This document shows, piece by piece, positions 3,001 to 59,824 of a DNA stretch of 64,000 nt (position 1 is the stretch's first letter; every line of letters starts with the position of its first letter). Under the pieces are notes generated by a model that was given only the letters and a program-made list of their open reading frames with translations, was not told where the DNA came from and searched no databases. Both the position numbers and the translations under genes were made by a program. Origin of the DNA: Torpedo marmorata (taxonomy: Eukaryota); NCBI GenBank assembly GCA_977017645.1, contig OZ360225.1, forward strand, positions 15,562,001-15,626,000, given 5' to 3'.

Positions 3001-5071
3001 ACAAGCAAGCGGTGTTCTAGCTCAGCTTCATCCAGATAACATCCATCATAGAGATCTGCCACAAAAGGAGAGAGGAAATCTTGAGACTCAGGAAAACAGT
3101 GGTCTCACAGTTGAAAAACTGGCTAATGCTGAGATGGAGATAATCTGCTTTTGCCAGAAGAAGAGATTTGCAGATGAAATCTCAAGTCTGAGAAAATGAA
3201 TGAATGTTAATAGGACTAGCCACATTCGTAAACTCAACCCCATTCTGGAAAATGATGCATTAAGAGTTGGTGGGCGACTTGGCAGAGCAGCAATGCCAGA
3301 AGAGATGAAATATCCTGTCATATTTCTAATCTAATTCTTCAACATGTTCATAAAGAGGTGGGTCATGGTGGTCGCAACCATATGTTATCCAGACTACACC
3401 AAAAATATTGGATTCCTGGTGCCATTGTGCTAATCAGAAAAATTGTGTCGAAATGTGTTGTTTGTCGATGAATAAATCCTACTCCTGGACAACAGCAGAT
3501 GGCAGATTTGCCTCTGGACAGAGTCTCTCCTGATGAACCTCCCTTCACATATGTTGGAGTTGATTATTTTGGACCCTTTGGAGTGAAGTGTGGAAGGAGT
3601 GTTGTGAAGCGCTATGGTGTTATTTTCACATGTTTAGCTGTAAGAACAATTCACATCGAAATGGCATCATCACTTGACACAGACTCTTTCATCAATGCCC
3701 TTCAGCGTTTTACCACCAGATGTAGTCAAGTGAAAGAACTACGATCTGACAATGGCACCAATTTTGTGGGAGCTCAGCGCGAGTTGAGGGAGGCAATTGA
3801 AAGCTGCAATCAGGGTCGAATCCATAATACACTGCTCCAGAAAGGAATCAATTGGATCTTCCATCCCCCTGCTGGCTCACACCATGGAGGTGTATGGGAA
3901 AGATTAACTAGATAAGTGCGAAAGGTTCTCAATTCCACCCTAAATGTGCAAAGTCTTGACGAGGAGGGTCTCCACATGGTTTTATGTGAAGCTGAGGCTA
4001 TCCTCAACAGTCGTCCAATCACCAAGGCTTCTACAGATCCAAATGACCTTGATGCACTTACCCCGAACCACCTTCTGCTCCTTAAGACTATGCCATCGAT
4101 GCCACCAGGGCAGTTTCAGAAGAAAGCATATATGCTCGTCACAGATGGAGGCAAGTTCAGTATATGTCGGACTTGTTCTGGAAAAGATGGATTAAAGAAT
4201 ATCTTCCCCAACTGCAGGAACGACAGAAATGGTCTAACATCAGACGCAACTTCACACCAGGAGACATCGTGATCATCATGGATGACTCAGTGCCTCGAAA
4301 CTCCTGGCTAACTGGAAAAATTGTTGAGACCAATCTGGACAAAAAGGGGCTTGTACATCATGTTCAGATCAAGACCAAAACCGGCTTTCTGAACAGACCC
4401 ATCAACAAAGTCTGCCTTCTGTAGGAGACAGAGGAACTTTGACAAGCCCAGAACTGACTTTATTTTTGTTGTTTTTTGGACCTTGCCCCTTGCCACTACA
4501 CAGACTACAGACTTTACTGGTCCAGAGTGGTGGTAAATATCACTCTTTTTCAAGGCTAGCAATCTCTGGCCTTATGAAGTATGAAGAAAGAAGATCTACA
4601 TAATATTGGAATGTACTGTGTTTGATTGTTATTTATAATTGTGTAATTATTATTTGAGACATAATAATTAGGGGCCGGTATTGTAGGAGCCAAAAGGTGC
4701 GTTGTTTGTGGTCGATGGTTTGGCTGCGGGCGTCAGCGGCGTCCCGGGGTTCGGAGGCTGCGCGCGTTCTGTTGCTGCCGGTGCGCACGCGCTATTCACT
4801 GCGAATGGTTTGCACATGCGCGCGGGTTTCGCGGGAGTTGGATTTTAGTTAGCCTGTGTTGACTGGTATGGCGGAATAGACCGTGGGTTAGTAGGGCTCC
4901 GATATTTTCTGTTGACCGTTAGTCACGTTCGCAAGAACGTTATCGTTACCAGGTTCATGGACGTTACCATATTACAATGATCATTACCACATTATGAGTC
5001 CTTTTGTGTTCACTAATAAACAGTTTAAAGCGCATCTGGACTTCGTTATGAATTTATTCGAATGCGTCACA
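1..5071 (+). mobile_element. BEL/Pao LTR retrotransposon (degenerate; 5' part outside the window)
   Basis: Frameshifted ORFs in the order: three gag Cys/His knuckles (CLFCGGGHSLEMC, CFGCLCKGHISKNC, CNICGLKH), protease (YAFLDPGS), RT (LLQGPDL...FYVDD), RNase H (LHHFADA), integrase (SDNGTNF, GGVWER) and the BEL C-terminal FWKRW domain. Then PPT AGGGGCCGG and a 3' LTR. Confidence 0.95.
4682..5071 (+). repeat. 3' LTR of first BEL element
   Basis: Begins TGTAGG immediately after the PPT, has AATAAA at 5015-5020 and ends ...GTCACA. The right end is inferred because the 5' LTR is not in the window. Confidence 0.75.
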
Positions 5072-9069: not shown

Positions 9070-10400
9070 GAAGAGCATAAACAGAAGAAATAGGAGCAGG
9101 CAATTTGGCCCATCGAGTCTGTTCTACCATTCAATAAGGTCATGGTTGATCAGGCTGTGGACTCAGCTGCACCTACCTATCTGCTTCCCATAACCCTTAA
9201 TTGCCCTACCATTCAAAAATCTATCTATGTTTCTTAAATACATTCAGCCTCTACTCCTTCCTTGGGCAGACAATACAACAGATTCTCTACTCTCTGGAAA
9301 AGCACTTCCTCCTTTTCTGTCTTAAATCTACTCCCCCGAATCGAGTTCTGGTCTCGCCTGCCAGTGGAAATTACCTCCTTGCTTCAATGTAATCCATTCC
9401 TTTCATAAATCTCTACAAGATCCCCTATCATTCTTCTAAACTCCAATGAGTTTAGTGCAAGGCCATTTCAAGATTAAGATTATTTTATTGTCATGTAATA
9501 AAACATAAAATGTAATATTACACAAAATTTCCTTTAGACTACATTAAGGCAGCCATAGATTTGCCATCTGCAGAAATTGCCCGCGCCCCTTACAGACAGA
9601 CAAAGAGAAGCAGAAGAGAGTCCTCTCAGAGTCACTGAGTGTCCATGGATTTGCTTCCGATGCTCCCGCAGCCTTCACAGCCACACAGACTTCAGTTCAA
9701 ACCATCGGCAACCCGAGCTCCAAACCCCTGACATGATCAGGAAGCTCTCGGCACCTTCTTGCACCTCGGTTCCAATACCTAGTACCCCTTCAGCCAAACC
9801 TGAGCCAGTCTCCAGCAGTCTGCAGCCTGGTGCGATTCCCTTGATTGCAGTCACTTGCAGCCCGCAGACTGTGTGGGTTCCTCACCTCGTGCCACCAACA
9901 GCATATGTGTTCTTCAGCCTCTGAGCCCGTCGCTGGTCCTCTGCTTCTCCTTCTCAAACAGAGGGTGTTATCCCCGTTTTCTGGTGCCCTGCACCAGTCC
10001 TCTGCTTCCTTGGAGTCTGCAACCCCTCATCACCGCTGCCGAACACAGGTGCCGCCATCTTGTACCGAGACCCCGTAGTCACAGGTGTCCTCGCATCCTC
10101 ATAAGATAATCCCATTCATTTCCAGAATCAACATGGTGAACCTCTTCTGCAACTTCTCCAAAGACAGTATATCCTTTATCAAGTAAGGAGACGAGAACTG
10201 CACACAGTTACTCCAGTTGCAGTCTCACCAGTAACCTATAGAGGTGCAGCAAAACCTCCCTGCTCTTAAATTCAATTCCTCTAGCAATAAAGGCCAACAT
10301 CCTGTTGGCATTTCTGATCACCTGCTGCAATAGATAACTTTCTGTGATTCATGTACAAGCACTCTCAGGTCTTTGCACGACAGCATTCTGCAATCTCTCA
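9070..10400 (-). mobile_element. Old CR1 LINE 3' region (interrupted at 9467-10087; continues at ~13681-13790)
   Basis: Degenerate similarity to the CR1 RT C-terminus and 3' UTR. Confidence 0.6.
9467..10087 (-). mobile_element. GC-rich non-autonomous retroposon, copy 1 (5'-truncated)
   Basis: Aligns by eye with the copies at 21703, 34255, 39942, 41573 and 58685. Ends CATGACAATAAA plus an (AATCTT)n-like tail. Confidence 0.8.
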
Positions 10401-10402
10401 TC

Positions 10403-13400
10403 ATAACCATATAACCATATAACAATTACAGCACGGTAACAGGCCATTAGGCCCTTCTAGTCCGCACCGAACCAAACACTCCTCTCTAGTCCCACCTACC
10501 TGCACCCTGCCCAAACCCTCCACCTCCTTCTCATCCATATACCTGTCCAACTTTTTCTTAAATAATAAAATTGACTGCCGCCACTACTTCTCCCGGAAGC
10601 TCATTCTACACTGCTACCACTCTCTGAGTAAAGAAGTTCCCCCTCATGTTACCTCTAAACCTCTGCCCCTTAACTCTTAACTCATGTCCTCTTGTTTTAA
10701 TCTCTCCTACTCTTAACGGAAATAGTCTATCCACATCCACTCTGTCTATCCCTTTCATAATCTTAAATACCTCTATCAAATCCCCTCTCAACCTTCTATG
10801 CTCCAAAGAATAAAGACCTAATATGCTCAATCTCTCCTTGTACTCTAGATGCTTAAACCCAGGTAACATTCTGGTAAATCTTCTCTGCACTCTCTCCACT
10901 CTGTTGATAACCTTCCTATAATTTGGCGACCAGAACTGCACACAGAACTCTAAATTAGGCCACCACAACGCCTTATATAATCTCAACATAACTTCCCAAC
11001 TCCTATATTCTATGCAATGATTGATAAAGACCAGCATACTAAAAGCCTTCTTCACCACCCTATTCACATGAGTTTCTACCTTCAGGGAACGATGCACCAT
11101 ATTTCCTAAATCTTTCTGCTCTTCTGTATTCATCAATGCTCTCCCATTTACTACGTATGTCCTGTTCAGATTCTTCTTACCAAAATGAAGCACCTCACAC
11201 TTATCAGCATTAAACTCCATCTGCCATTTTTCTGCCCACTTTTCTAAGCAGCCCAAATCCCTCTGCAATCCTTGAAAACCTTCTTCATTATCCACTATTC
11301 CACCTATCTTAGTATCATCTGTATATTTACTAATCCAGTTTACCACCCCATCATCTAGATCATTGATATATATAACGAACAACAATGGGCCCAATACAGA
11401 TCCCTGAGGCACACCGCTGGTCACCGGCCTCCAACCTGACAGACAATTATCCACTACCACTCTCTGGCCTCTCCCTTCCAGCCAATGTTCAATCCATTTG
11501 ACTATCTCAGAATTTATACCTAAAGACTGCACCTTCCTAACTAACCTTCCATGCGGGACCTTATCGAAGGCCTTACTGAAGTCCATATAGACAACATCCA
11601 CTGCGCTACCCTCATCCACATTCCTAGTCACCTCTTCAAAAAATTCAATCAGATTGGTCAAACAGGACCTTCCGCTCACAAATCCGTGTTGAGCGTTCCT
11701 GATCAGAACCTGTCTATCCAGATATTTATAAGTACTATCTCTGAGAACTTTCTCCATTAATTTACCTACCACAGACGTCAAACTTACAGGCCGATAATTG
11801 CCAGGCTTCCTCCTTGAACCCTTTTTAAATAACGGAACCACATGCGCAATACGCCAATCCTCCGGCACTATCCCCATCTCTAATGACATTTGGAAAATCA
11901 CCGTCAGAGCCTCTGCTATTTCCTCCCTTATTTCTCTCAAGGTCCTGGGGAAGATCCCGTCGGGTCCCGGAGACTTATCCACCTTTATATGCCTCAAAAG
12001 CCCTAACACTACATCTTTCGTAATCCCTATATTCTCCATATTTACCCAATTTGCTTTTTTTATCTCGCATATCTCAATATCCTTCTCCTTGGTGAATACC
12101 GAAGAAAAAAAACTGTTCAATATCTCCCCCATTTCTCTAGGCTCCACACACAGTTTTCTGCTCTGATTCTCTAAGGGACCAATTTTGTCCCTCGCTTTCC
12201 TTTTACCATTAACGTATTTGTAGAAACCTTTTGGATTAATTTTCACCCTGCTTGCTATAGTCTCCTCGTACCTTCTTTTAGCTTTCCTAATTCCTCTCTT
12301 AAGATTCCTTTTACATTCAATGTATTTTTCAAACATCTCCTTAATTCCATGCTTCTTATACTTAATGTACGCCTCCCTTTTTTTTCGAACCAAGTTTTCA
12401 ATATTCCTCGAAAACCACGGCTCTTTCAAACCTTTTGCCCCTCCTTTTAACCTAACAGGAACATAAAGCTTTTGCACTCTCAAAATCTGATCTTTAAAAG
12501 ACTTCCATCTCTCTACTACATCCTGCCCATAAAACAAATTGTCCCAATGCATACCCTGTAAGTCCTTTCGCATCTCCTCAAATCTAGCTTTTCCCCAATC
12601 AAAAACCTCAACCCTTGGCCCTGATTTATCTCTTTCCATAATGACATTGAAGCTGATGGCATTATGATCACTGGACCCGAAGTGCTCGCCAACACAAACC
12701 TCCGTCACTTGACCTATCTCATTTGCCAACAGTAGATCTAACACTGCTCCTTCTCTGGTCGGTACCTCTACATATTGTTGTAAAAAACTATCCTGCACAC
12801 ATTTCACAAACTCCAACCCATCCAGCCCTTTCACAGAATGTGTTTCCCAATCTATATGTGGGAAATTAAAATCTCCCATAATTACAACCCTGTGCTTATC
12901 ACAAATATCCACTATCTCCCTACAGATTTGCTCCTCTAGGTCTCGGTCCCCTCCGGGTGGTCTATAATACACCCCTACAAGTGTAACTTCTCCTTTTCCA
13001 CTCCTCAGTTCTACCCAAATAGCCTCCGTGGACGAGCCCTCTAATCTATCCTGCCTAAGCACCGCTGTAATATTCTCCCTGACAAGCAATGCAACACCAC
13101 CTCCTCTTGCCCCTCCGACTCTATCACACCTAAAGCAACGAAACCCAGGGATATTCAGCTGCCAATCACATCCCTCCTGCAATCATGTCTCACTAATCGC
13201 TACCACATCATACTTCCAAGTATCAATCCACACCTTCAGCTCATCCACCTTTTTTACAATACTCCTGGCATTAAAATATATGAATTTCAGAGATTTCCCA
13301 CTTCTTAATCTCTGTTTGCCCTCATCTTTAGTAACAACATTATTTACTTTTTCTGCCAATTGCCCTTCATCTTCATCCAGAGCATTTCCCTTCTCTATCA

Positions 13401-15586: not shown

Positions 15587-18428
15587 AAGGTGTGGATTGA
15601 TACTTGGAAGTATGAGGTGGTAGCCATCAGTGAGACATGGTTGCAAGAGGGATGTGATTGGCAGCTGAATATCCCTGGGTTTCGTTGCTTTAGGTGTGAT
15701 AGAGTCGGAGGAGCAAGAGGAGGTGGTGTTGCATTGCTTGTCAGGGAGAATATTACAGCGGTGCTTAGGCACGATAGATTAGAGGGCTCGTCCACAGAGG
15801 CTATTTGGGTGGAACTGAGAAGTGGGAAAGGAGCAGTTACACTTATAGGGGTGTATTAGAGACCACCTGGAGGGGACCGAGACCTAGAGGAGCAAATCTG
15901 TAGGGAGATAGTTGATATTTGTGATAAGCACAGGGTTGTGATTATGGGAGATTTTAATTTTCCACATATAGATTGGGAAACACATTCTGTGAAAGGGCTG
16001 GATGGGTTGGAGTTTGTGAAATGTGTGCAGGATAGTTTTTTACAACAATATGTAGAGGTACCGACCAGAGAAGGAGCAGTGTTAGATCTACTGTTAGCAA
16101 ATGAGATAGGTCAAGTGACGGAGGTTTGTGTTGGCGAGCACTTCGGGTCCAGTGATCATAATGCCATCAGCTTCAATGTCATTATGGAAAGAGATAAGTC
16201 AGGGCCAAGGGTTGAGGTTTTTGATTGGGGAAAAGCTAGATTTGAGGAGATGCGAAAGGACTTACAGGGTGTGCATTGGGACAATTTGTTTTATGGGCAG
16301 GATGTAGTAGAGAGATGGAAGTCTTTTAAAGATCAGATTTTGAGAGTGCAAAAGCTTTATGTTCCTGTTAGGTTAAAAGGAGGGGCAAAAGGTTTGAGAG
16401 AGCCGTGGTTTTCGAGGAATATTGGAAACTTGGTTCGAAAAAAAAGGGAGGCGTACATTAAGTATAAGAAGCATGGAAATAAGGAGATGTTTGAAAAATA
16501 CATTGAATGTAAAAAGAATCTTAAGAGAGGAATTAGGAAAGCTAAAAGAAGGTATGAAGAGACTATAGCAAGCAGGGTGAAAATTAATACAAAAGGTTTT
16601 TACAAATACGTTAATGGTAAAAGGAAAGCGAGGGACAAAATTGGTCCCTTAGAGAATCAGAGCGGAAAACTGTGTGTGGAGTCTAGAGAAAAGGGGAGAT
16701 ATTGAACAGTTTCTTTTCTTCGGTATTCACCAAGGAGAAGGATATTGAGAAATGCAAGATAAAAAAAGCAAATTGGATAAATATGGAGAATATAGGGATT
16801 ACGAAAGATGTAGTGTTAAGGCTTTTGAGGCATATAAAGGTGGATAAGTCTCCGGGACCCGACGGGATCTTCCCCAGGACCTTGAGAGAAGTAAGTGAAG
16901 AAATAGCAGAGGCTCTGACGGTGATTTTCCAAATGTCATTAGAGATGGGGATAGTGCCGGAGGATTGGCGTATTGCGCATGTGGTTCCGTTATTTAAAAA
17001 GGGTTCAAGGAGGAAGCCTGGCAATTATCGGCCTGTAAGTTTGACGTCTGTGGTAGGTAAATTAATGGAGAAAGTTCTCAGAGATAGTACTTATAAATAT
17101 CTGGATAGACAGGTTCTGATCAGGAACGCTCAACACGGATTTGTGAGCGGAAGGTCCTGTTTGACCAATCTGATTGAATTTTTTGAAGAGGTGACTAGGA
17201 ATGTGGATGAGGGTAGCGCAGTGGATGTTGTCTATATGGACTTCAGTAAGGCCTTCGATAAGGTCCCGCATGGAAGGTTAGTTAGGAAGGTGCAGTCTTT
17301 AGGTATAAATTCTGAGATAGTCAAATGGATTGAACATTGGCTGGAAGGGAGAGGCCAGAGAGTGGTAGTGGATAATTGTCTGTCAGGTTGGAGGCCGGTG
17401 ACCAGCGGTGTGCCTCAGGGATCTGTATTGGGCCCATTGTTGTTCGTTATATATATCAATGATCTAGATGATGGGGTGGTAAACTGGATTAGTAAATATG
17501 CAGATGATACTAAGATAGGTGGAATAGTGGATAATGAAGAAGGTTTTCAAGGATTGCAGAGGGATTTGGGCTGCTTAGAAAAGTGGGCAGAAAAATGGCA
17601 GATGGAGTTTAATGCTGATAAGTGTGAGGTGCTTCATTTTGGTAAGAAGAATCTGAACAGGACATACGTAGTAAATGGGAGAGCATTGATGAATACAGAA
17701 GAGCAGAAAGATTTAGGAATAACGGTGCATCGTTCCCTAAAGGTGGAAACTCATGTGAATAGGGTGGTGAAGAAGGCTTTTAGTATGCTGGCCTTTATCA
17801 ATCATTGCATAGAATATAGGAGTTGGGAAGTGATGTTGAGATTATATAAGGCTTTGGTGCGGCCTAATTTAGAGTTCTGTGTGCAATTCTGGTCGCCAAA
17901 TTATAGGAAGGATATCAACAAAGTGGAGAGAGTGCAGAGAAGGTTTACCAGAATGTTACCTGGGTTTAAGAATCTAGAGTACAAGGAGAGATTGAGCATA
18001 TTAGGTCTTTATTCTTTGGAGCGAGAAGGTTGAGAGGGGATTTGATAGAGGTATTTAAAATTATGAAAGGGATAGACAGAGTGGATGTGGATAGACTATT
18101 TCCATTAAGAGTAGGAGAGATTGAAACAAGAGGACATGAGCTAAGTGTTAAGGGGCAGAGGTTTAGAGGTAACATGAGGGGGAACTTCTTTACTCAGAGA
18201 GTGGTAGCGGTGTGGAATGAGCTTCTGGGAGAAGTAGTGGCGGCAGAGTCAATTTTATTATTTAAGAAAAGGTAGGACAAGTATATGGATGAGAAGAAAG
18301 TGGAGGGTTATGGGCAGGGTGCAGCTAGGTGGGACTAGATAGGAATGTTTGGTTCGGTGCGGACTGGAAGGGCCTAATGGCCTGTTTCCGTGCTGTAATT
18401 GTTATATGGTTATATGATTATATGGTTT
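15587..18428 (+). mobile_element. Young CR1 LINE, 5'-truncated ORF2 (same subfamily as 10403-13680)
   Basis: Near-identical to the reverse complement of 10403-13236. Has YADD, a stop at 15857, frameshifts near 16690 and 18025, and a (TTATATGG)n tail. Confidence 0.97.
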
Positions 18429-18440
18429 ATACTTAAGGGA

Positions 18441-19325
18441 GATTCAAGGTTCCTTTGTTGTCAAGTGCATGGAATACACAAACTTTGTTTCCTTTTGTTT
18501 GCCCGTAAAGGCACACACGTTCAAGTTTATTTATCATTGTACAAGTATAACCCGACGAAACAGCGTTCTCTGGTCCTCTGTGCAACACACTGCAAACACA
18601 CATACAGACCAATGATACATATGCACAGTATTTATGTATAAATATTAAAATAAATAAATATTATTGTTAAATAAATAGTTGAGTCACGGAGAGTTTATAT
18701 GAGCAATCTCACCGCCCGTGGGAAAGAGGTGCCACTATTAAGAAGAGAAGCAAAAGAGAGTCCCTTCAGAAACTTCAAGTGTCCATCGATCCCAACACCT
18801 CCTTCAATGCCTCCTGCGCCTCTAACCTCCTGTCTTATCCTGCGGTGAACCCGAGCTTAAGACATCTAAATCACCTGCCTAGCCCCTAGTTCTGATCACC
18901 TGTGGCGATCAGCGCCTGAAACCCTTCGGGAGCCCTGTTTGCTATCGGCACCTTCACGAGTCCTGGCCCCGACACCCGGATCCCACCAGCCGGTCTCCAG
19001 CAGCCCACGACCTGGTGTGAGTTCTTCAGCTGCCGAGCCCCTTGCTGCTCCGTTGCTGTGGTCTCCCACCCTGTAAGGTCCAGGCTACTCCTTCCTGGTG
19101 GCGGGGATGTTCTCCGGTTCTGGTGCCCTGCACCCATCCACAGCTCCCCTGGAGCACGCAACCTTTGTTGTCTGGGCTGCCGAGCATGTGCGCCGCTATC
19201 TTGGGCATGGACCTCCGTGGTTCTCCAATTTATAAAATAAAACACGGCCAGCCCCATTCCATAGGCAGTTTAAACCTGTATGGTATCAGTATAGTGACCG
19301 GGCAGTAGGACCCCGCGGAGGAGCT
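18441..19325 (-). mobile_element. GC-rich retroposon, divergent subfamily (interrupted by a Rex1 3' fragment ~18520-18725)
   Basis: Shares the AAGCAAAAGAGAGTCCCTTCAGA block, a GCCGCTATCTTGGGC motif and tail structure with the other copies. Confidence 0.6.
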
Positions 19326-19721
19326 CTGAAAGATGTGTTTAGATGATCTTCATCACGTTTTCATTTATATATGACTTTTGTGCAAATTGCCTGCTGTTGT
19401 TTGATGCATTCAGAATTAATTTATTTCTCAACTTTGGTCAGTCTAAGCAAGTGAAACGCCACAAAGACTGTTTCTTTTCAACTGTTAGAAAAATGCAGAG
19501 ATGATTTTGATTTGGGCTGATTAAATGATCATACTAGAACACTTGGACTTTTGAAAATAAAGTTGCAGATGTTGGAAATCTGAAACCCAGCAAAAAGCAC
19601 TGGCTGATCAGATGCTCCCAAACCTGCTGAGTGTCTCCAGTGTTTGGTTGGAAACTTTTCAATTTCTGTTGCAGTAAAAACAAACACCTGATTTCTCAAC
19701 TGTCCATTTGCACACTTTCAG

Positions 19722-20759
19722 ATACTGCATACATTAAAACATGATGGTTGCGCCAGCAAAAACAGCCAAGTCGCCTCAGAACAAAACAAGCAATGGCCTC
19801 TCCAGATCAAGGATCCAGGACAGGCACCGTGTATCATTGCTGATCAAGCCTCAGCCCCTGTGTCCATCGACAGTGGTCAAACAAAGTGTTTAGAGGCATT
19901 GTGTGTTTCACAAGAACGGAAAATAATCGATGTGCAAAATCTCGTCCCCTGTTCTCATCCCCTTGATGATCATCAGGGGATAGCAGTTCCATGCATCAGT
20001 CACCTTACAGAGAAGGAAAATGAATTCAATGACAACAATAGCCATTTGTCCACAATGCCGGCTATGAAGCACAATTCCATTGATGATGCTAATTTCAGGG
20101 AAATTAACTGGATCCAGAAGGCAAACTGTGATACAGTCAATCAACGTAATGACTCTGTGAGCTATAATCCAGCAACTGTGAAGGATTTTCTTATGAACCA
20201 GCAGGAGTTCAGCCTACATCGACAACATTCTGCTGCGTTAAACAAAGTGGTGACCATTGAAATTCCTCAAGAAAGATTGCAACAAGGAGATGTCACAGAG
20301 GTTCTTTCTTTAGAACCACCACCAGTTTTATTTCAATCTGATGAAGGCCCTCCCAAATGCACTTTATTTGAAGGAAGTGGCAAAATGAGGGATGTTTCAG
20401 TGCAGACCGAGGGCAACAGCGAGGAGTACACGATTAAAAAAAGGCAACCTGACGGAATTAAGAAACGCTCTCGACTTGCACCTGAGTTTCAATCTGGCAT
20501 CCAAATTACAAAATCAGCTTCATTGGATACTGGGCTACATGTCGTTGAGCAGAATGCTCGGAAACTAACTGCTGGCACTCCAGCCTGCTGCCTTTACTGC
20601 CATCATTGCTGCTGTCTCCAACATGGTTGTTCATCATCATGCTACAAAGCTAACAGTATGAGGAGTCCAACGAAGACTGCTGCCTCACACTCAGAGGCAC
20701 AGCTGATCAAGACCTTGCAGCAGTTACAGCAAACTGCAAGAGCCATCTCTGGATCTCCG
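19722..20759 (+). CDS. ITPRID1: ITPRID1 large internal exon (346 codons)
   Basis: tttcag acceptor and CCG|gtgagt donor, phase 0/0, open throughout. Contains TKSASLDTG, a Cys/His cluster and EAQLIKTLQQLQ, which resemble CCDC129 as I recall it. Confidence 0.88.
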
Positions 20760-21369
20760 GTGAGTATACTGCATGCAACGATTAATAGTAAACCAATCTA
20801 TGGTCTGTGAAATTTGACTGAGTTGCACTCACATTTACAGTGGTCAGATTTGTCCTGGTTTCCTGAAGTAGTAGCCATGAAGGACACAAGCACCTATATC
20901 AGCACCTTGGTCAGTGTCGACGAGTTGAGTCAAAGGACCTGCTTTTGTGCTGTAAAGCTCTATGGCTCTCTACCATTTCACCCACAAGAGGAGTATATAA
21001 AACAGGATAGCTCCCCATGAAAATTATAGGTTAGTTTTATCCAAGTCATGACTCAACATCTTTATTCTCCTGTCAGTTCCTCTTCAGCACATGGCTGGGG
21101 AAGTTATACTGAAATTACGAACAGTAAGGTCCTTCTTGTAAACTTCTTTCCTAATTTCTTCAATCAAACTTTCAGTTGATGCTTGGATAATCAGAAAGTC
21201 TACCTCCAATGGCACAATTTTACATTTTTTGTCCAAACACGTGGGAAACTAAATGTTTGTTGGACTGAATGCAAACGATCATTTTGTCCCCACTGAGCAG
21301 AGAAACCATTTTCACTTGGCATTTCCAGTTGTGCAGCTGAGCTTTCCCCTTAACCAGACTATTATTTGG

Positions 21370-22590
21370 AACATAAAATGTTACAGCACAGTACAGGCCA
21401 TCATTTTGTGCCGACTTATATAAAGCTACTCCACAATGATCTAACCATTCCCTACCCTCTACTTTTCTCACATCCATGTGCCTGTCTAAGAGTCTTTTAA
21501 ATGTCTCTTTTGTACCAGCCTCCACACCCACCTCCGACAATCCAGGCACCCACCACCCTCTGTGTAAAAAAAAAAACCGACCTCAAAATCTCCCCTAAAC
21601 TTTCCTCCACCCTCATTCAACAGATATCTTCTGGTATTGGCTATTGTCGCCCTGGGAAAAAGGTGCTGGCTGTCCACCCTATCAATGCACCTCATATTCT
21701 TGTTTCAAGATTCAAGATTCTTTTATTGTCATGTAATAAAACTGAAAAAGTTATATTACATGAAATTTCCTTTCGTCGACCATACAGCAGACAAAGATTT
21801 GCCATCAGCAGAAATTGCCTGGCACCCCTTTCAGTCAGAGAAAGAAGCAAAAGAGAGTCCCCCCAGAGTCACTGAGTGTCCGTGGATTTGCCTCCAGCGC
21901 TCCTGTTGCCTCCACAGATACACAGCCATCAGACAAATCATTGACAACCCGAGCTCCAGATCCAAACCTCCTACTCGATCAGGAAGCCTCCAGCGCCCTC
22001 GGTACCCTCTCACATCTTGGTTCCGATACCTGGTATCCCTTCAGCCAGTCTCAAGCCAGTCTCCAGCAGTCTGCAGCCTGGTGCGAGTCCCTTGACCGCA
22101 GTCGCCAGCAGCCTGTGGTCTGCGTGGGTTCCTCACCTCGAGTGACCAACAGCCCGCCGCCTATGTGTTCTTCAGCCTCAGAGCCCCTCGCTGGTGCGCC
22201 GCCGTGGTCACCATCCCATGGGTCGTCTCCTCTAGTTCTCCTTCTCAAACGGTGGGGGGGGTGGTCTCCCAATTTTCTGGTGCCATGCCCCAGTCCGCTG
22301 CTCCCCCGGAGTCTGCAACCCCTCATAGCTGCTGCCGAACATAGGTGCCACCATCTTGGGCCCAGACATCAGCTCTTTTAACAGGTCGTTTAAAACCTGT
22401 ACGGTCCTGCGGCAGTTGGACTGGGACTTTGGATCCTACGGGGGGCACTGTGTCTTTGCTCACCGCTCTCCCTGGGTCCACACCAGCGGCAGCACTGCCG
22501 TTACAGAAGCTCCGGCAGCGCCGCCATTTGTATACCTCTATTAAGTCGCATCTCATCCTTTGTCACTCCAAAGTGAAAAGCACTAGCTCT
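21370..22590 (-). mobile_element. Old CR1 3' fragment interrupted by the GC-rich retroposon
   Basis: RCDLIEVYK...IDRVDSQHLFPR. The flanks of the insert rejoin as ...CATATTCTTGT|ATACCTCTATTAAGTC. Confidence 0.7.
21703..22529 (-). mobile_element. GC-rich non-autonomous retroposon, apparently full-length copy
   Basis: Same 5' end as the copy at 41573, a 5' hairpin at 22488-22525, an (ATCTTGA)n tail and a possible TTGT duplication. Confidence 0.85.
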
Positions 22591-25252: not shown

Positions 25253-26508
25253 CAGAATCAGAATTAGAATCAGAATTTATTGTCATGAACAAGTCATGAA
25301 ATTCGGTGTTTTGAGGCAGCATCATATTGCAATTAACATTCATATTAACCATCTAACGACATTACTATAAAAAATTATAAACAATAGTGCACGAAAAGTA
25401 AGGCAGTGTCTTTGGTTCATTGATTATTCAGGAATCTGATGGCAGCAGGGAAGAAGCTGACCTTGTGCCGTTGAGTGCTTGTCTTTAGGCTCCTGTACCT
25501 TTTTCCCGATGGAAGCAGAGTGAAGAGGGCATGGCCTGGGTGGTGGGGGTCTTTGAGGATAGAGGCTGCTTTTTTAAGACACCGCCTCATGTAGATGTCC
25601 TCGATGGAGTGAAGTTTGGTGCCTGTGATGTCACAGGCCGAGTTAACAACCCTCTGAAGTTTACTCTTGTCCTAAGAGTTGGCGCCTCCATACCAGGCAG
25701 TGATGCAACTAGCCAGAATGCTCTCCACGGTACACCTGTAGACATTTATGAGAGTCTTCGGTGACATACCGAATCTCCGCAGACACTTCACAAAGTATAG
25801 CCGCTGACGAGCCTTCTTTGTGATTGCATCAATGTGGATGCTCCAGGACAGATCCTCGGAGATGTTGACACCCAGGAATTTGAAGTTCTTGACCCTCTCC
25901 ACGACTGAGCCCTCGATGAGGACTGGGTCATGTTCCCCTGACTTCCTCCTGAAGTCCACAATCATCTCCTTGGTTTTGCTGACGTTGAGCTCAAGGTTGT
26001 TTTCATTACACCGTTCAACGAGCTGATCTATCTCCCTCCTGTACGCTTCCTCATTGCTGTTTGTGATTCTGCCGACAACTGTGGTGTCATCGGAAAACTT
26101 GTAGACGGCATTGGAATTGTGCCTGGCCGCACAGTCATGGGTGTATAACGAGTAGAGCAGTGGACTAAGCACGCATCCTTGGGGTGCGCCTGTGTTGATA
26201 ATCAGTGAGGAGGAGACGTTGTTTCCAATTCGTACTGACTGTGGTCTTCCGATGAGAAAGTCAAGGATCCAGTTGCAGAGTGGGGTACAGAGGCCTAGAG
26301 TTTGTAGCTTCTTGACCAGCACTGAGGGAATAATGGCATTGAAGGCCGAGCTGTAGTCGATGAAGAGCAGCCGTATGTATGAATTGCTGTTTTCGAGGTG
26401 ATCCAGAGCTGAGTGGAGAGCCAGTGATATTGCATCTGCTGTGGAGCGATTGTGACGATAGGCGAATTGCAGTGGGTCCAGATCTTTGCTTAGGTACGTG
26501 TTAATTCA
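25253..26508 (-). mobile_element. Rex1/Babar LINE, 5'-truncated
   Basis: RT motifs [23 protein letters not shown] and KKARQRLYF, with an (ATTCTG)n tail. Confidence 0.92.
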
Positions 26509-30107: not shown

Positions 30108-30715
30108 GATTCAAGATTCTTTTATTGCCATGTGCGTAAAAGGCACACAAATTGTTTTTCTTTGTTTGCAAAGAGATACCACTAGTCCAACCCCACTATC
30201 AAGACAAGAAAGCGAAACAAATGAGCGTCCCTTCAGAGACATCAACCACCTCCTCCGATGTCACAATCTCTTGCGCTCCTGTAACCTCGGTAGCCTCGTG
30301 GCCTCTTGTCCAGTGTCCGGTCCAGCGGTTAACCCAAGCTCCAGGTGTCGGAGTCATTCTGAACACCTGATGCGATTAAGAAGCTGTCAGCGCCTGAACC
30401 CATCAGTCCAGTGGAGCCCTGCTCGCCATCCGCACCCTCACGAGTCCCAGTCCCAATACCTGGTTACCACGAGCCAATCTCCAGTAGCCTGGTGTGAGGC
30501 CTTTGGCCACCAAGCCCCGCACCGGTTTGCTGATTTAGCCCCCCTACCCCATAGGATCCTCTCCCAGGCTTCTCCTTCTCGGCATGGAGGTGTTCTCCTA
30601 CTCTGGTGCCTTGTGCCCCTCTGCTGCTCCCCTGAAGCCCACAACCCTTGTGGTCTGGGCTGTGAAGCATGGGTACTGCCATCATGGGCACGGACCTCCA
30701 TGGGTTCCCCAATTT
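30108..30715 (-). mobile_element. GC-rich retroposon, divergent subfamily
   Basis: GATTCAAGATTCTTTTATTG tail (reverse complement) and body similarity to 18441-19325. Confidence 0.65.
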
Positions 30716-34254: not shown

Positions 34255-34788
34255 ATTGAGAAGCAGAGGAGATAACCCATGGGACAGTGACCATGGTGAC
34301 GGACCAGTGAGGGATTCTGCAGCTGAAGGACCCACACAGGCGGCGGGATGCTGGTGACTCGAGGCGAGGAACCCATGGAGGCTGTGGGCTGCTGGAGACT
34401 TCAGTCAAGGGACTTGCACCAGGCTGCAGACTGCTGGAGACTGGCTCGAAACTGGCTGAAGGGGTACCAGGTATTGGAACCGGGATGCGAGAGAGTGCCG
34501 AGGGCGTTGAAAGGTTCCTAATGGTATTGGAGGTTAGAATCTGGAGCTCGGGTTGCTGATGGTTTGTATTGGACTCTGTGTGGCTGTGGAGGCTGCGGAA
34601 TCGCTGGAGGCGAATCCACGGACACTCACTGACTCTGGGGGAACTCTCCTTTGCTTCCCTTTCTCTGACTGTAAGAGGCGCTTCAGGCAATTTCTGCCGA
34701 TGGCGAATCTGTCTGCCTTACAGCAGGCAAAAGCAATTTTGTGTAATATGACACTGTTTTTATTACATGACAATAAATTGAATCTTGA
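34255..34788 (+). mobile_element. GC-rich retroposon, 5'-truncated copy
   Basis: Reverse-complement match to 21703-22240, ending CATGACAATAAATTGAATCTTGA. Confidence 0.8.
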
Positions 34789-37419: not shown

Positions 37420-37802
37420 ATGAGAACGCAGGCCTTGGAAGCCATAGACATCATACAAGAATCCATGAGGGTGCCGGTGGAGAACAGGGCCTCCAAAGGG
37501 TCTCGGGCGCTGACAGCTTTGTGGGTTCACAGCCAGGGACCGAGGAGGGAGAATTGGAGCTCGGGTTCAGCGCTGGACCGGGCAGGAGGCCATGACACTA
37601 CGGAGGTTACGGGAGCACAGGAGGTGGCGGTATTGGGGGAGACGGTGGGATCCAAGGATATTCTATGTATCTGAGAGGAATCTCTTCTCTTTCTCGCCTA
37701 ATATTGGCATTGGACTAGTTGCACTCTTTGCGTGCCTTCACAGGGCAAAGAAGGAGAAAGGATTTTTGTGTATTTGACAATAAAGGAACCTTGAATCTTG
37801 AG
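37420..37802 (+). mobile_element. GC-rich retroposon, divergent subfamily, 3' part
   Basis: Ends GACAATAAAGGAACCTTGAATCTTGA and is the reverse-complement relative of 18441-18960. Confidence 0.55.
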
Positions 37803-39941: not shown

Positions 39942-40650
39942 GATCAGATCAGATACTATTTATTGTCATGTAATAAAAGAGAAATGTAATATTACACGAA
40001 ATTGCCTTTAGTCTGCCATAAGACAGACAAAAATTTGCCATTAGCATTGCCTGGTACCCATTACAGTCAGAGAAAGAGAAGCAAAAGAGAGTCCCCCCAG
40101 AGTCACTGAGTGTCCGTGGATTCACCTCCAGCGCTCTTGCAGCCTTTGCAGCCGCACAAGACTCCAGTTCAGTTCAAATGATTGGCAACGCAAGCCCAGG
40201 ACCAAACCTCCGACACGATGAGGAAGCCTTCAGTGCCCAGGGCCCTTCGGGAGCCCTCCTTGTCCTCAGCATCCTCTCGAATACCGGTTCCGATACCTGG
40301 TTCCCATGAGCCAGTCTCCAGCAGCCCGTAGCCTGGTGTGAGTCCTTTGACCTCAAGTTGCCAGCAGCCTGCACCCTGTGTGGGTTGCTCGCCCGCAAAT
40401 CGCCAAGGGCTCGCTGCCTGTGTGTGTCCTTCCCCCGCAGAGCCCCTTGCTGGTCCTTCACTGTGGTCACCGTCCTTTGGGTCATCTCCTCTGCTTTTCC
40501 TTCTCAACAGGGATTTTCTCCCCCATACTGGTGCCCTGTGCCAGCCTACTGCTCCCCCAGATTCTGCAACCACTCAAGGCCGCTGCCGAACACAGGCACC
40601 GCCATCTTGGGCCCAGACTCCAAGGTTGTAGGATTTTAAATTAAAAAACC
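39942..40650 (-). mobile_element. GC-rich retroposon copy
   Basis: Reverse-complement match to 41725-42400, with the CCGCCATCTTGGGCCC motif. Confidence 0.85.
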
Positions 40651-41309
40651 ATTGACAGCCCAAGTTTGTCCACCCTCTCCCCATAGTTCGTACCCTCTAA
40701 TCCAGTCAGCATTCCGGGAGATCTCTTCTGTAACCTTTCCAAAGCTTCCATATACTCCCTGCAATGGGGGAAGAAGCAGAGCTGGTAGAAATATCAGCGT
40801 GTCATCATTGTCTTCAACAGACCAGGATTTAATGTGAGAAAAGCACTTCCCCACTACCCCTGTGATCGAAAGCTTCAGACCAAAGTCATTTATTACTCCA
40901 AAGATTTCTACATGTCACATCAAATTGTTCATGCATCAACCAATGGCAGCTTGGAGCCAACTTAACCCATAGATCGCATCTCTGTCTCACAGCTCCAATG
41001 CCAATAAACCTTTTTAACCATATGTTCAGATGCAACCACTTAATTACTTTCCTGGGAAACGTAATTCTGATCATTATTTTGGCTGGATTTAAGTATTGGG
41101 GCAGAACTGTGGCCTGGGTTACTTTTGTCCTTGTTGCTTTTGCTTTACGTGGGATATCGCAGCATCTCTATGGTGTATAGTATTCCTCTTGGTCTGAAAT
41201 AATTACTTCCATGGAAGTAGATTTCTATAGTGGGGTAGGATTATAGAAAGGAAATGAACTATGAATCTTGAGAAAACTATGTATTTCAGCCCAAGTTATG
41301 AAGCATTGA

Positions 41310-42520
41310 GTGTCAGAGGAGGAAGTCACGTTACAGCTGTATAACACTTTGGTTAAGCTGCTCTTGAAGTATTGTGTGCAGTTCTGGTCGTCCCATTACA
41401 GGAAGTGTGGAAGGTTTGGAAAGGATCCAGAAGAGATCTCCCAGGATGCAGTCTGGAATAGAGGGTATGAGCTATGGGGAGAGGTTGGACAAACGTGGGT
41501 TGATTTCTCAGGTGTGTTGGAGGCTGACGGGAAACCTGATAGAAGTTTATAACTATATGCGAGTCATACAAAAAAGTGGGGGCACTGGCGGAGCTGCTGT
41601 GATGGCAGCGCTGCCTCTGGTGCAGACCCGGGGAGAGTGCGGAGCAGAGACACAGTGCTCCACCGTGGGGTCCTACTGCCCTGTGCTACTGTCAACAGCT
41701 CCGGCCTTTTAAAGGAGCAAACGGTTTTTTATCTAAAATCTGGGCCCAAGATGGCAGCGCTTGTGTTCGGCAGTGGCATCAAGGGGTTGCAGACTCCAGG
41801 GGAGCAGCAGACTTGTGCAGGGCACCAGTAACGGGGAGAACAACCTTGTTGAAATAGAGAAGCAGAGGAGACAACCCGAAGGACGGTGACCATCGTGGCG
41901 GACCAGCGAGGGGCTCTGCGGCTGAAGGATACACGCAGTGGCGAGCTGTTGGCGACATTCAGGTGAACAACCCACACAGACTGCAGGCTGCTGGCGACTT
42001 AGGTCAAATGACTCACACCAGGCTGTGGGCTGCTGGAGACTGACTCATCAGAACCAGGTATCGAAACCGGGATTCGAGAGGATGCTGAGGGCAAGGAGGG
42101 CTCCCGAAGGGCTCTGGGCACTGAAGGCTTCCTCATCGTGTCAGAGGATTTGATCTGGGCTCGGGATGTCAATGGCTGGAACTGAACTGGAGTCTTGTGC
42201 AGCTGCAGAGGCTGGGGGAGCGCTGGAGGCGAATCTATGGACACAGGTGACTCTGGGAGGACTCTCTTTTGCTTCTCTTTCTCTGAATGTAAGGGGTGCC
42301 AGGCAATGCTAATGGCGAATCTTTGTCTTCCTTATGGCAAACTAAAGGCGATTTTGTCTAATATTACATTTCTACTTTATTACATGACAATAAATAAATA
42401 GTAGTTGAGATAGGTTGTACTATCTATTCCCAGGGTAATATTGCCACATGCCAGAGGACATGCAATTATGGTAGAGCAGGGGTAGATTAAAGCAGATGGG
42501 CAGGGTAAGACTTTTCACAT
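41310..42520 (+). mobile_element. Old CR1 3' region (interrupted at 41573-42400 and by the Gypsy; resumes at 56178-56390)
   Basis: LYNTLVKLLLKYCVQFWS...NLIEVY. The sequence continues across the Gypsy TSD into the CR1 3' end. Confidence 0.75.
41573..42400 (+). mobile_element. GC-rich non-autonomous retroposon, apparently full-length copy
   Basis: 5' end matches 22529, CCCAAGATGGCAGCG lies near 41746, and it ends CATGACAATAAATAAATA. Confidence 0.85.
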
Positions 42521-43385: not shown

Positions 43386-45058
43386 CCTCTCCCCAACAAA
43401 GAAAATTTTGATCTGTAAGAGCAAAATTTTAACTGCAACCTACAATGTTTGAAATAATACATTCACTATTGTTACATGATATAATGCAGACAAATATAAC
43501 ATTTTTCAGTAACGTTGCAAACGTAACATCTTGAAAGGCAATCAGCAATTACATTATCCTTGCCTCTAATAGGAGTTACCATTAAATCATATTCCCTGCA
43601 GAATTAGACTCCAGTTTAACAATCGTCTATTTTTGTTTTTCATTTTACTCAAGAACACTAAGGGATTATGGTCACTATACACAACAAGTGGTCCCTGAGC
43701 TGTGCAGATGTAACATCGAAATGCTGCAAAGCCCGTACAATAATACTTTGTCTATGGTAGAATAATTCTTTTGATTTTTATTGAATTTCTTGGATAAGTA
43801 AGCCACTGGATGGTCAATATCATCACAACCATTCTTTTGTAATAACACTGCTCCCGCAGCTTCATCTCTAGCATCCACTGCTAAAGAAAATGGCTTCTCA
43901 AAGTCAGATGACTTAAGCGTAGGCTGGTGACATAAAATGGCTTTCAGTTTATCAAATGCTTTCTGACAAAGTTCTGTCCAAACAAAAATTTTAATCTTCT
44001 TCAGAAGGTTAGTCAAAGGAAGGGCAATATCAGCAACATTTTTACAGAACTTTCAATAATTCCCAAAAACCTACTAACAGCTTTCTTACCTGTGCGAACG
44101 GGAAACTCAGAAATCGTTTGAACTTTCACCTGAACAGGCGCCAAATTGCCTTGACCAACAACGTAACCAAGATAAGTCACAGTAGCATGGCCAAATTCAC
44201 TTTTAGCTAAATTAACAGTAAGGTTTGCTTTTGAAAGTTTGTTAACAATTTCTCTAACTCAGAGATATGTGCTTCCCACGTGTCATTCCCCGTAACCAAA
44301 TCATCAATATAAGCATCTGTATGCTCTAAACCTTGAATCACAGAATTAGTAATTCTTTGGAATGTCCCTGGAGCATTTTTCATTCCAAATGGTAAAACAT
44401 TGTATTCATATAACCCTGATGAGGTCACAAATGCAGAAATTTCCCTACCTCTGTCTGTTAAAGGAACACACCAGTAACCTTTTATTAAGTCTATCTTCAT
44501 AAGAAACTTAGCCTTTCCAACCTTGTCCACACAATTATCCACCCTAGGGATAGGATAAGCATCTGTCTTTGTTACCGCATTAACTTTTCTATAATCAGTG
44601 CAAAATCTAACCGTCCATTTGGTTTAGGCATCAGGAAACGTGAACTCCAATCTGAGGTAGAACGTCTAATAATATCATTCTTTAACATATATTCAATCTC
44701 TTGATCTACCAGTCTGCACCTTTCAACATTCATTCGATATGGATGTTGTTTGATAGGTTTTGCATTTCCAACATCAACATCATAACAAGTTATTGGGGTT
44801 CTCTTAGGCACGTCTGGAAACAAGTTCCTAAATTTTAAAAGTAGCTGTTTCATTTGCTCCTTTTCCTGGGGCTGAAGATGAGCCAACTTTGCATCCAAAT
44901 TCTGCAAAACAATCGAATTAGACAGGTGAACTGGGACCATGTTTTGTTTGAAGTGACCCTCACAAGAGTCAGCTTGTACCGTCTCATGGTCCCTAGACTC
45001 CTTAGTTTTATCAACAACCAATATCGCTGATGAAGGCTGTTCCTTGCTAAAAGCCAAG

Positions 45059-53670: not shown

Positions 53671-53756
53671 GGATATATATCAGAATCTGTCTTTGTCTCA
53701 TCAATGACTGGCCTAGCTGTCATTGATGAGACAAAGACAGATTCTGATATATATCC
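53671..53756. repeat. Perfect 38-bp inverted repeat with 10-nt loop
   Basis: 53671-53708 is the exact reverse complement of 53719-53756. Confidence 0.97.
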
Positions 53757-57899: not shown

Positions 57900-59824
57900 G
57901 GGGCCTCAAGCAATTCCAAGGAAAGCATCCAGTCCGGATGGAGGACCCAGCCGAGTTCTGAAAACCTGTGCTGACCAACTGGCCAATGTATTCAAGGATA
58001 TCTTCAACATCTCACTCCAGCAAGGCGTGGTACCCACCAGTTTCTAACAGACTTCAATCATACTGGTGCCCAAGAAGAGCGTGGTAACCTGCCTCAATGA
58101 CTACCAACCAGTGACACTCACATCCACAGTGAAGTGTTTTGACAGGCTGGTGTTGACACATATCAGCTCCTGTCTGATTGGCAACATGGATCCATTCCAA
58201 TTTGCCTATCACAGCAACAGATGCCAGTTCTACACAAAACTCTGGAACATCTGGACAGTAAAGATGTATACATCAGGATGTTCTTTATTGACTACAGTTT
58301 GGCATTCAACACCATCATTCCCTCAAATCGGATCAGCAAACTTCAAGACCTGGACCTCAATACCCCACTGTGCAATTGGATCCTGGATTTCCTCATCTCC
58401 AGATCCCAATCAGTGCAGATTGGCAAGAACATCTCCTCCACAATCTCCATCAGCAGCAGAGCACCACAGGGCTGTACACTTAGCTCCCTGTTCTATTCGC
58501 TATACATCTATGACTGTGTGGCTCGATACGGCAACAACATTTCTAAATTTGCTGACAATACCACCATATCGCTCCATAAGAAGGGGAGATGAGTCAGCAT
58601 ACAGGAGGGAGATTGAAAACTTGGCTGATGGTGTACTAACAACAACCTCTCGCACAAATTCATCAAGACCAAAGAGTTGATAAAGAAGGTTCTGAGGGCA
58701 AGAAGGGTTCCCAAAAGGCCTCAGATACTGAAGGCACCCTGATCATATCAGAGGTTTGGATCTGGAGCTCGGGTTGCCAATGGTTTGAATAGGGGTCAGT
58801 GCGGCTACAGAAGCTGCAGGAGCGCTGAAGGTGAATCTACGGACACTCAGTGACTCTGAAGGGATTCTCTTTTGCTTCTCTTTCTCTCTTATTGTTAGGG
58901 GCGCCGGACAATGCTCAAGGTGACTCTTTGTTTGCCTTACTGCAGACCAAATTGTTGTATATCATGTATATTGCATGTTTATGTATTATTATGTGACAAT
59001 AGAAGAAACCTTGAACCTTGACCTTGATTATAGACTTTAAGAAAGGAAAACCAGAAATGTACAATCCAGTTATCATTGGGGATCAGAGGTGGAGGGAATG
59101 AGTAAATTTAAATTCCTGGGAGTCACTATCTCGGAGGGATTTTCCTGGACCCAATATAATGTCATTGTGAAGAAAACACATCAGCGCCTCTACTTCCTCA
59201 GGAATTTGCGGAGGTATTGGTATGTCATCGGAAAGCTTGGCAAACTTCTACAGATGTGAGGTGAAGTATGCAGACCAGCTGCATCAGGGCCTGGTATATG
59301 GGCACCAATACCTCTGAGCGGAAATCCCTGCAAAAGTTACTGAACATAGCCCAGTTCATCACAGGCAAAATTCTTCCCCACCATCGAGAACATCTCCATG
59401 GAACGCTGCCGTCAGAGAGCAGCAGCAATCATCACGCATGCTCTCAGACATGCTCAGACATGCTCTGTTCTCACTGCTGCCATCAGGAAAGAGGTATAGG
59501 TGCCATAAGACTCCTACCACCAGGTTCAGGAACAGTTGCTACCCCTCCACCATCAGACTACCAAACAACACACTCAATCAGAGACTCATTTAAGGGCTCT
59601 TAGTTTGCATATTATTTATTAATGAATATTTTTTCTGTATTGTACAGTCTGTTTGTTTACATTTCTTTCTTTCTTTTTACATTTCTCTCTTTTGCATCCT
59701 TCATCTTGACTACAGTTTAGTTACCGATAAGTAGAAATTCTGCCTGGCCCGCAGGAAAACGAATCTCCGGTTTGTATGTGATGTCATGTATGTACTCTGA
59801 CAATAAATCTGACCTTGAACTTGA
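57900..59824 (+). mobile_element. Older Rex1/Babar LINE, interrupted by a GC-rich retroposon
   Basis: [10 protein letters not shown]...IFNISL, PKK...[16 protein letters not shown] and KFAD, with AATAAA and a CTTGA-type tail. Confidence 0.85.
58685..59027 (+). mobile_element. GC-rich retroposon, 3' part
   Basis: Matches 42080-42400 and has a (CCTTGA)n-like tail. Confidence 0.75.

Follow-up and report, generated by a model that had tools for sequence, protein, structure and literature searches.

A Rex1-type tail on an abundant, non-coding, GC-rich retroposon of Torpedo marmorata, likely transcribed by Pol II

The GC-rich repeat lying on the reverse strand at positions 21703..22531 of the window (the whole 64-kb stretch of Torpedo marmorata DNA that was analysed) belongs to a very abundant family which, as judged from its sequence, is probably a Sadhu/SVA-like retroposon, likely transcribed by Pol II and likely mobilised by Rex1 LINEs; taken separately, mobilisation by Rex1 appears highly probable and an internal Pol II promoter quite probable. 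The features which place the element in the Sadhu/SVA category are a 5' boundary that is fixed regardless of the flanks, its non-coding nature and the lack of Pol III signals; with SINEs it has in common the absence of coding sequence and a LINE-type 3' tail, but neither the head nor the promoter of a SINE is found. Read as a LINE-dependent, non-Pol III retroposon, the family deserves notice for its scale, for the Rex1-type tail and because three heads share this one tail.

Copies, ends and abundance of the family

All nine copies listed for the window in the earlier note were recovered using BLAST, a profile HMM (made from 49 full-length copies, drawn from 62 genomic loci) and the subfamily consensuses, the last two accounting for nine of nine. 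The subfamily names (Y, M1-M3 and O) and the letters of the Rex1 families are labels of our own. The copies, together with the nearby Rex1 family A fragment, are the following:

9469..10085 (-): 5'-truncated copy, subfamily M1
18440..19333 (-): copy of the old subfamily (O), split at about 18521-18742 by a 3' piece of Rex1 family C
21703..22531 (-): focal full-length copy, subfamily M1, 85.6% to the M1 consensus
25257..26507 (-): Rex1 family A LINE fragment with RVT_1 and PF09004 (second copy at 51783-52777)
30110..30713 (-): copy of the old subfamily (O), 5'-truncated
34258..34788 (+): 5'-truncated copy, subfamily M2
37466..37800 (+): 3' fragment of the old subfamily (O)
39942..40654 (-): 5'-truncated copy, subfamily M3
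41574..42399 (+): second full-length copy, subfamily M3
58684..59023 (+): M3-like 3' fragment, nested in a Rex1 family B copy (57915-59812)

The focal copy and the copy at 41574 begin at the same point, and the GC hairpin at the 5' end, the two ATGGCGG-type motifs and the CAATAAA ends followed by short repeats are all present as first described; instead of the two subfamilies originally proposed, at least five were found by tree and consensuses. The focal copy sits inside a CR1 fragment, intronic in and antisense to an ITPRID1-like gene; since the sequences on either side of it match neighbouring parts of other CR1 copies, it represents a clean insertion. A large coding exon of this gene lies at 19692-20760 (+) of the window (open frame 19692-20807; 76% to a protein of the electric ray Narcine, the closest listed), with an apparent splice donor near 20759, and the focal element is found, antisense, about 950 bp into the next intron. 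The window also holds Rex1 fragments in which RVT_1 and PF09004 are recognised, pieces which from their ORFs are CR1, L1/Tx1-like or, in decayed form, BEL/Pao-like and Gypsy-like LTR retroelements (the LTR pieces at 88-4347, 46875-51076, 43678-45066 and 52786-55035), and a 2.8-kb inverted duplication (10403-13236 / 15587-18421; 97% identity, 2.3-kb spacer); the latter is a CR1-like LINE, one arm of which has an 858-codon open frame, and it adjoins the old element copy at 18440.

A first look at the genome (6.22 Gb) yielded 17,024 candidates; 40 of them were scored and 30 loci were fetched. Among these best genomic matches, 26 of 30 align from the first 13 nt, and their flanks hold only scattered other repeats in common. 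In a set of 30 loci chosen by the 5' 160 nt, seven interrupted ones were read individually: two pass, at different points, into the middle of the ORF of Rex1 pieces from different families and are taken as nested insertions (the far side lies outside the view), a DNA-transposon-like repeat carries or cuts three, another repeat cuts one, and one has deletions. Head fragments of the element inside DNA-transposon-like repeats are found at loci L063, L068, L070, L224 and L240; L063 and L068 share their junctions, and so do L224 and L240, which indicates that the head fragment was amplified as cargo. Every copy aligned starts with a short A-rich run and ATGGCGGC and ends with CAATAAA and 7-nt repeats; the element is about 850 nt long, and its consensus (49 full copies) has 59% GC and a CpG observed/expected ratio of 0.87. 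Target-site duplications of 8 bp or more are present in none of 57 full copies, in which the longest word common to both flanks has a mean of 4.2, versus 4.0 in shuffled pairs. At L004, L109 and L204 the first 10-12 nt of the element are briefly duplicated at the 5' junction, which suggests re-priming or template jumps as reverse transcription ends.

A tree of 77 full copies resolves five groups (72 copies assigned, 5 left out). The five subfamilies arose successively, their non-CpG divergence from their own consensus being 16% for O, 9% for M3, 7% for M1, 6% for M2 and 4% for Y; the old group keeps the same 5' start. In an abundance sample of one hundred 10-kb stretches taken at round-number coordinates of large contigs (1 Mb), 38 insertions make up 2.0% of the bases (bootstrap 1.2-2.9%), bearing out the very high copy number that had been suspected; 22 of them fall in the first 40 stretches and 16 in the last 60. 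Extrapolation gives about 2.4×10^5 copies (1.5-3.4×10^5) before correction; since two or three of the 38 insertions are head fragments carried by another repeat and two others are maybe one insertion, about 2×10^5 copies is a fair figure. Variable 5' truncation, as the earlier note had it, holds for the older window copies but not, genome-wide, for the youngest subfamily: Y is the commonest (15 insertions), and 14 of the 15 start within 30 nt of the 5' end. By comparison, 14 of 41 Rex1-A 3' fragments reach at least 845 nt (Fisher p 1.4e-4 against the 14 of 15 full-length Y copies), a contrast which is exaggerated because the Rex1 fragments are unmerged across interruptions. Contigs of five sequencing runs (three organisms, three studies) cover the element and speak for its presence only; contig depth, which in one guessed-RNA run is, when summed, much greater over the element than over the adjacent Rex1, was discarded as an expression readout, since depth cannot rank expression.

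Anatomy and transcription signals

In the focal copy the element is composed, from its 5' to its 3' end, of the following parts:

22521..22531 (-): 5' start, a short A-run and the first ATGGCGGC motif, YY1/TISU-like
22501..22527 (-): 8-codon micro-ORF from the first ATG, of the same length in all five subfamily consensuses
22488..22525 (-): 5' hairpin with 13-bp arms, predicted in all five subfamily consensuses
22361..22529 (-): structured GC-rich head with three hairpins
22347..22357 (-): second AAGATGGC motif, TISU core, CpG-decayed in the focal copy
21831..22350 (-): unstructured G-rich middle (z -0.4 to -1.9)
21837-21857 (-): polypyrimidine tract with a T4 run, at the end of the middle
21703..21830 (-): tail module, common to a 5S-headed and a tRNA-headed SINE
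about 21770-21796 (-): small hairpin in the tail
about 21730-21763 (-): terminal stem-loop in the tail
21722-21728 (-): CAATAAA, then 7-nt repeats

The core AAGATGGC corresponds to the TISU/YY1 element, which lies at +5 to +30 of human Pol II starts and combines a YY1-dependent transcription element with a short-leader start codon (PMC2518114). A TISU-type motif occurs twice per element; the 11-mer of the second is present in 2 of 3000 shuffles, and at neither site does the youngest consensus keep to the strict motif. The start motif is not specific to Rex1: of its 32 matches in 1 Mb, 14 lie in other repeats, some of them at L1/Tx1-like 5' regions. The near-full L1/Tx1-like elements at L245, L247 and L112 have a 5' region with AAGATGGCGCC followed by GCGCATGCGC, presumably an NRF1-like motif; another abundant GC-rich repeat (L198, L223, L242, L243 and L244; five loci per Mb) consists of tandem AAGATGGCGGCGCCGGAAGT units, which we take to be YY1- plus ETS-like motifs, and may represent a coding region read on its antisense strand.

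The first 205 nt fold more strongly than dinucleotide shuffles (with z from -6.5 to -7.3 in four subfamilies and of -2.3 in the oldest one), and so does the tail (z -2.6 to -4.6); the 500-nt middle folds near its shuffles, with the z values listed above. Covariation of the hairpins, a check proposed in the earlier note, was judged on consensuses and not on individual copies, since neutrally decaying copies hold no such signal. Out of 265 pairs predicted across the five consensuses, 146 are invariant, 44 show one-sided changes, 7 are compensatory, 5 are compensatory with breaks and 63 are broken; these counts, for which no null was computed and in which parts of the oldest sequence are misaligned, give modest support through the 7 compensatory pairs and speak against pairing through the 63 broken ones.

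The lack of Pol III A/B boxes noticed at the outset holds for the sense strand of all five consensuses. Each consensus contains three or four internal T4 runs, those near nt 170 and 700 being found in all five, and these would be expected to stop Pol III; oligo-T has been used as the same argument against Pol III for SINEU (PMC4494074). Within the 64-kb window neither a tRNA gene nor a Rfam family at gathering score was detected (ARAGORN, Rfam), and the small-RNA head typical of a SINE is absent from the element according to the same tools which detect the heads of both sister SINEs described below; these results, and the lack of a conserved ORF, support the initial description of the element as non-autonomous, non-coding and not tRNA-derived. 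Since there is no small-RNA head, a messenger-RNA-type promoter is likely. A 5' self-cleaving ribozyme head (HDV-like or hammerhead) was considered and rejected, there being no Rfam hit in the element; a loose ribozyme descriptor fitted only M1 and M3 and none of Y, M2 and O, and the cut would fall inside the element.

In the focal copy (21821-21857 (-) of the window) and in the oldest consensus the polypyrimidine tract is followed by an AG immediately before the tail, with AATAAA about 110 nt later. The combination of tract, AG and AATAAA looks like a splice acceptor plus terminal exon and, given this putative acceptor and AATAAA, sense-oriented intronic copies could truncate host transcripts.

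Tail module, sister SINEs and the Rex1 LINEs

The Rex1/Babar-like nature of the 3' end, already recognised in the earlier note, is confirmed by its architecture: the 125-nt tail has the stem-loop, the CAATAAA and the short tandem repeat of Rex1. The Rex1 tails met in the sampled DNA are of at least seven types, each ending with (GAC)AATAAA and a 5-7-nt repeat. A stem closing directly before CAATAAA is predicted in the five subfamilies, in both SINEs and in Rex1 A, B, C and G, with stem sequences that differ; it is not predicted in Rex1 D or E (one copy each folded). Alignment of the element tail with the tails of the 5S and tRNA SINEs gives z 8-16; the primary-sequence similarity between the M1 tail and the Rex1 tails is weak (z 0.9-2.2).

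A search with a tail profile in 1.72 Mb, chosen so as to be rich in the element, gave 135 matches: the tail is preceded by the element in 113 of them, by a 5S head in 13, by a tRNA head in 1, by a nested Rex1 insertion in 2 and by nothing recognised in 6; in none of the 135 does the tail belong to a LINE's own 3' end. An origin as the long 3' UTR of a LINE, which had been named as a finding that would overturn the proposal, is rejected on this count and by the unrelated 5' flanks of the full copies; likewise, an autonomous Rex1/Babar LINE or a LINE 3' UTR was rejected as an identity of the element, there being no contiguity with an APE-RT ORF.

Two SINEs carry the same tail. The 5S rRNA-headed one (about 243 nt, about 2% from its consensus) is found at L008:576-815, L017, L089, L094, L129, L133:25-267, L143, L199, L216, L223, L227 and L253, and its 8 near-full copies per Mb correspond to tens of thousands genome-wide; the tRNA-headed one (about 207 nt; L148:8987-9193) has one full copy in 1 Mb. 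Their heads are identified by Rfam with E 3e-7 for the tRNA and about 1e-3, below the gathering score, for the 5S rRNA. At the sequence level, the element amounts to a third kind of head joined to a common tail, and simple deletion from one of the Rex1 families examined does not account for it.

Rex1-A by itself makes up about 5% of the sampled DNA and measures 3.25 kb when full length, as it is in 4 of the 20 long-frame loci fetched; all four begin at AAGATGGCG or AAAATGGCG, the ATG of which appears to open the ORF. These copies (L092, L094, L097 and L108) have essentially no 5' UTR, the ATG being at about nt 4, and their N-terminal coding extension holds short tandem repeats. Full-length Rex1-B and Rex1-C, each found at one of ten loci, both open with a CpG-decayed start motif; the single near-full Rex1-D copy is without it. 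The comparison with full-length Rex1 5' ends suggested earlier proved informative, the same motif opening A (four of four), B (one) and C (one); in Rex1 database proteins, 108 of 120 with a usable N-terminus, 28 of the 108 start with MAP, MAL or MAA. The similarity to Rex1 A, B, C and D is nevertheless confined to the extremities: at the 5' end a motif of about 10 nt is common and nothing further, and at the 3' end the terminal 11-32 nt and the stem-loop, with z 8 to Rex1-B for the youngest subfamily only. The term 'bipartite', in the sense of the 5' and 3' parts of one LINE, is not supported, since Rex1 A-D align only over these last 11-32 nt (best E 0.03).

As to the partner, Rex1 family A is by age the candidate mobiliser of the youngest subfamily (median divergence 2.9% for Y versus 3.3% for Rex1-A and about 2% for the 5S SINE), and M2 (6-8%) and M1 stand alongside Rex1-B/C (about 6%). 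The evidence conflicts: age points to Rex1-A, tail resemblance to Rex1-B, the tail of Y being closest to that of Rex1-B (z 8), with 8 of 13 Y-specific columns matching B and 1 of 13 matching A in that alignment. Counting against the preferred reading, too, are the absence of a LINE with the same tail among the 135 tail matches, the weak sequence similarity of the M1 tail to Rex1 tails and the occurrence of the start motif in other repeats. The Rex1 loads of rays are among the highest in vertebrates and Rex1 is without ORF1 (PMC13343379), both of which fit an abundant trans-acting supply.

Proposed mechanism, competing explanations and known systems

Transcription of the element would start a few bases upstream of the first ATG, as in full-length Rex1, and the 3' end of the RNA would form after CAATAAA and the short repeats; the Rex1 ORF protein would then recognise the terminal stem-loop mainly through its shape, with sequence mattering less, and carry out target-primed reverse transcription, leaving no or very short target duplications. 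By age, the youngest wave coincides with Rex1 family A. A more elaborate version, possible though doubtful, is that the capped Pol II RNA gains ribosome loading and protection from its TISU-started micro-ORF and folded head, so as to out-capture Rex1's own RNA, its tail tracking the Rex1 waves; the element would then be a vertebrate Pol II 'SINE'. The figures cited for this better capture are the full-length young copies (14/15) and the Rex1-A fragments which reach that length (14/41).

The element may instead be a classical bipartite non-autonomous LINE, formed when an internal deletion joined the two ends of an unsampled or extinct Rex1 family, a second 5' unit being perhaps a later addition. 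In keeping with such an origin, the same start motif opens full-length Rex1, a short stretch after the second motif resembles by eye the 5' end of Rex1-C, only four of the at least seven Rex1 tail types have entered the comparison of 5' ends, and the family is old (16% from consensus), so that the parent may have decayed. We consider it unlikely, however, since no alignment to full-length A, B, C or D goes past the terminal 11-32 nt, since a Rex1 N-terminal profile (108 sequences) which recognises four Rex1 families with E 4e-16 to 3e-5 does not see the frames of the element (best E 0.26), since Rex1 5' ends are scarcely structured (z -0.2 to -2.0, versus about -7 for the head) and since a two-part motif pattern matched none of the consensuses. 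The same profile, which misses all 30 element frames, led to the rejection of the middle as a Rex1 N-terminal coding extension. An improbable ancestor is a small protein-coding helper (HAL1/HeT-A-like, or a captured mRNA with its TISU start and its stop) whose frame was later lost in the younger subfamilies. No long ORF is common to the five consensuses, as had been claimed, but in the oldest one 170 codons are open from the second motif to a stop placed exactly at the start of the shared tail (37 of 2000 shuffles are open throughout this span), and one old copy reads 151 codons open. Against a coding past, the frame has no synonymous excess relative to the younger consensuses (p 0.07-0.38, in a test chosen after the frame was seen), only 2 of 18 O-to-M3 indels are triplets (8 of 42 between subfamily consensuses), and a protein search with the 151-codon copy gave one match among 1.84 billion, an unrelated-looking repeat protein, with atlas scores of 0.79 or less; Pfam gave nothing above cut-off in five frames of the window copies. 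The 170-codon frame probably arose by chance. A coding function is not supported, on the same counts (no synonymous excess, few triplet indels, no credible homologue), and the conserved frame of ORF1-bearing non-autonomous LINEs (HAL1, HeT-A, Ag-Sponge) is not found here, the frame being open only in the oldest consensus.

Even less probable is mobilisation by a LINE of another clade (L1/Tx1, CR1 or L2) with convergence of the Rex1-like end. L1/Tx1-like elements of the same genome do bear the same motif near their 5' end, and no Rex1 with an identical tail is found among the 135 tail matches; yet L1-type insertion normally leaves poly(A) tails and target duplications, and the element has no poly(A) tails and no target duplication of 8 bp or more in 57 copies. 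Moreover, in the tails listed the GACAATAAA plus 5-7-nt repeat end came after Rex1 coding sequence. The least probable reading of all is that of a Pol III (or Pol I) SINE with an unrecognised RNA-derived head or an external promoter: the tail is in common with two Pol III SINEs, the young copies are mostly full length as in SINEs, and bird SINEs with GC-rich heads of obscure origin exist (PMC7245038), but the A/B boxes are missing, the internal T4 runs are conserved, no Rfam family comes near its gathering score and the length is 850 nt.

The Sadhu/SVA-like reading preferred here takes its name from two elements classed by Kojima as neither SINE nor non-autonomous LINE (PMC4494074). Sadhu of Arabidopsis resembles the element in being non-coding, about 900 nt long and without small-RNA head or Pol III boxes, and in its conserved 5' motif, polypyrimidine tract and presumed LINE mobilisation; it differs in having about 16-21 full copies (about 2×10^5 for the element) and poly(A) with 8-18 bp target duplications, in place of a Rex1-type stem-loop/repeat tail with no duplications beyond chance (PMC2848041; PMC4494074). 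The TISU/YY1-type start is a further difference, and no homology is claimed. SVA of hominids is likewise non-autonomous, GC-rich and trans-mobilised by a LINE; its Pol II transcription has been shown, that of the element being inferred, it is about 2 kb long and a composite of known parts, unlike the head and middle of the element, and it is driven by L1, the likely driver here being Rex1 (PMC4494074). Bipartite LINEs (RIME, NARTc, Bov-A, RTESINE, Vingi derivatives) have, like the element, a LINE-type 3' end, LINE-like first bases, presumed Pol II transcription and possible head exchange with SINEs, but they keep extended parental 5' and 3' parts, the similarity between the element and Rex1 being limited to terminal motifs and fold; ORF-less bipartite LINEs are reported only for RTE, Ingi, Vingi and R2 (PMC5786205). 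SINE2-5_NV of Nematostella has a Rex1-type tail and is Rex1-partnered; it and the two local SINEs differ from the element in their tRNA or 5S heads, Pol III promoters and length of about 210-245 nt (PMC3747384). In bird SINEs a GC-rich, non-small-RNA head is joined to a LINE-type tail (PMC7245038, citing its ref. 31), but the partner is RTE and the 5' and 3' LINE parts are identifiable (PMC7245038).

No description of the family was found in the literature searched (main texts; supplements, Repbase Reports and most subscription papers were outside the scope), nor do the excerpts of PMC6274825 and PMC5499810 describe it; an automatic entry in Dfam/Repbase is likely. If the proposed reading is true, the element would be a non-Pol III LINE passenger of Alu-like abundance in a vertebrate, with about 2×10^5 copies amounting to roughly 120 Mb; in the same literature no such passenger is described for the Rex1 clade. 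A single tail would then bear tRNA, 5S and likely Pol II heads in one genome, and these three heads on one tail would offer a natural experiment on the role of the head in trans-mobilisation and on the recognition of RNA by Rex1. With the copies, CpG-rich YY1-type starts, a polypyrimidine tract and AATAAA are spread through introns, and host transcripts could be affected in this way; the family is also a sizeable contributor to the large size of the genome.
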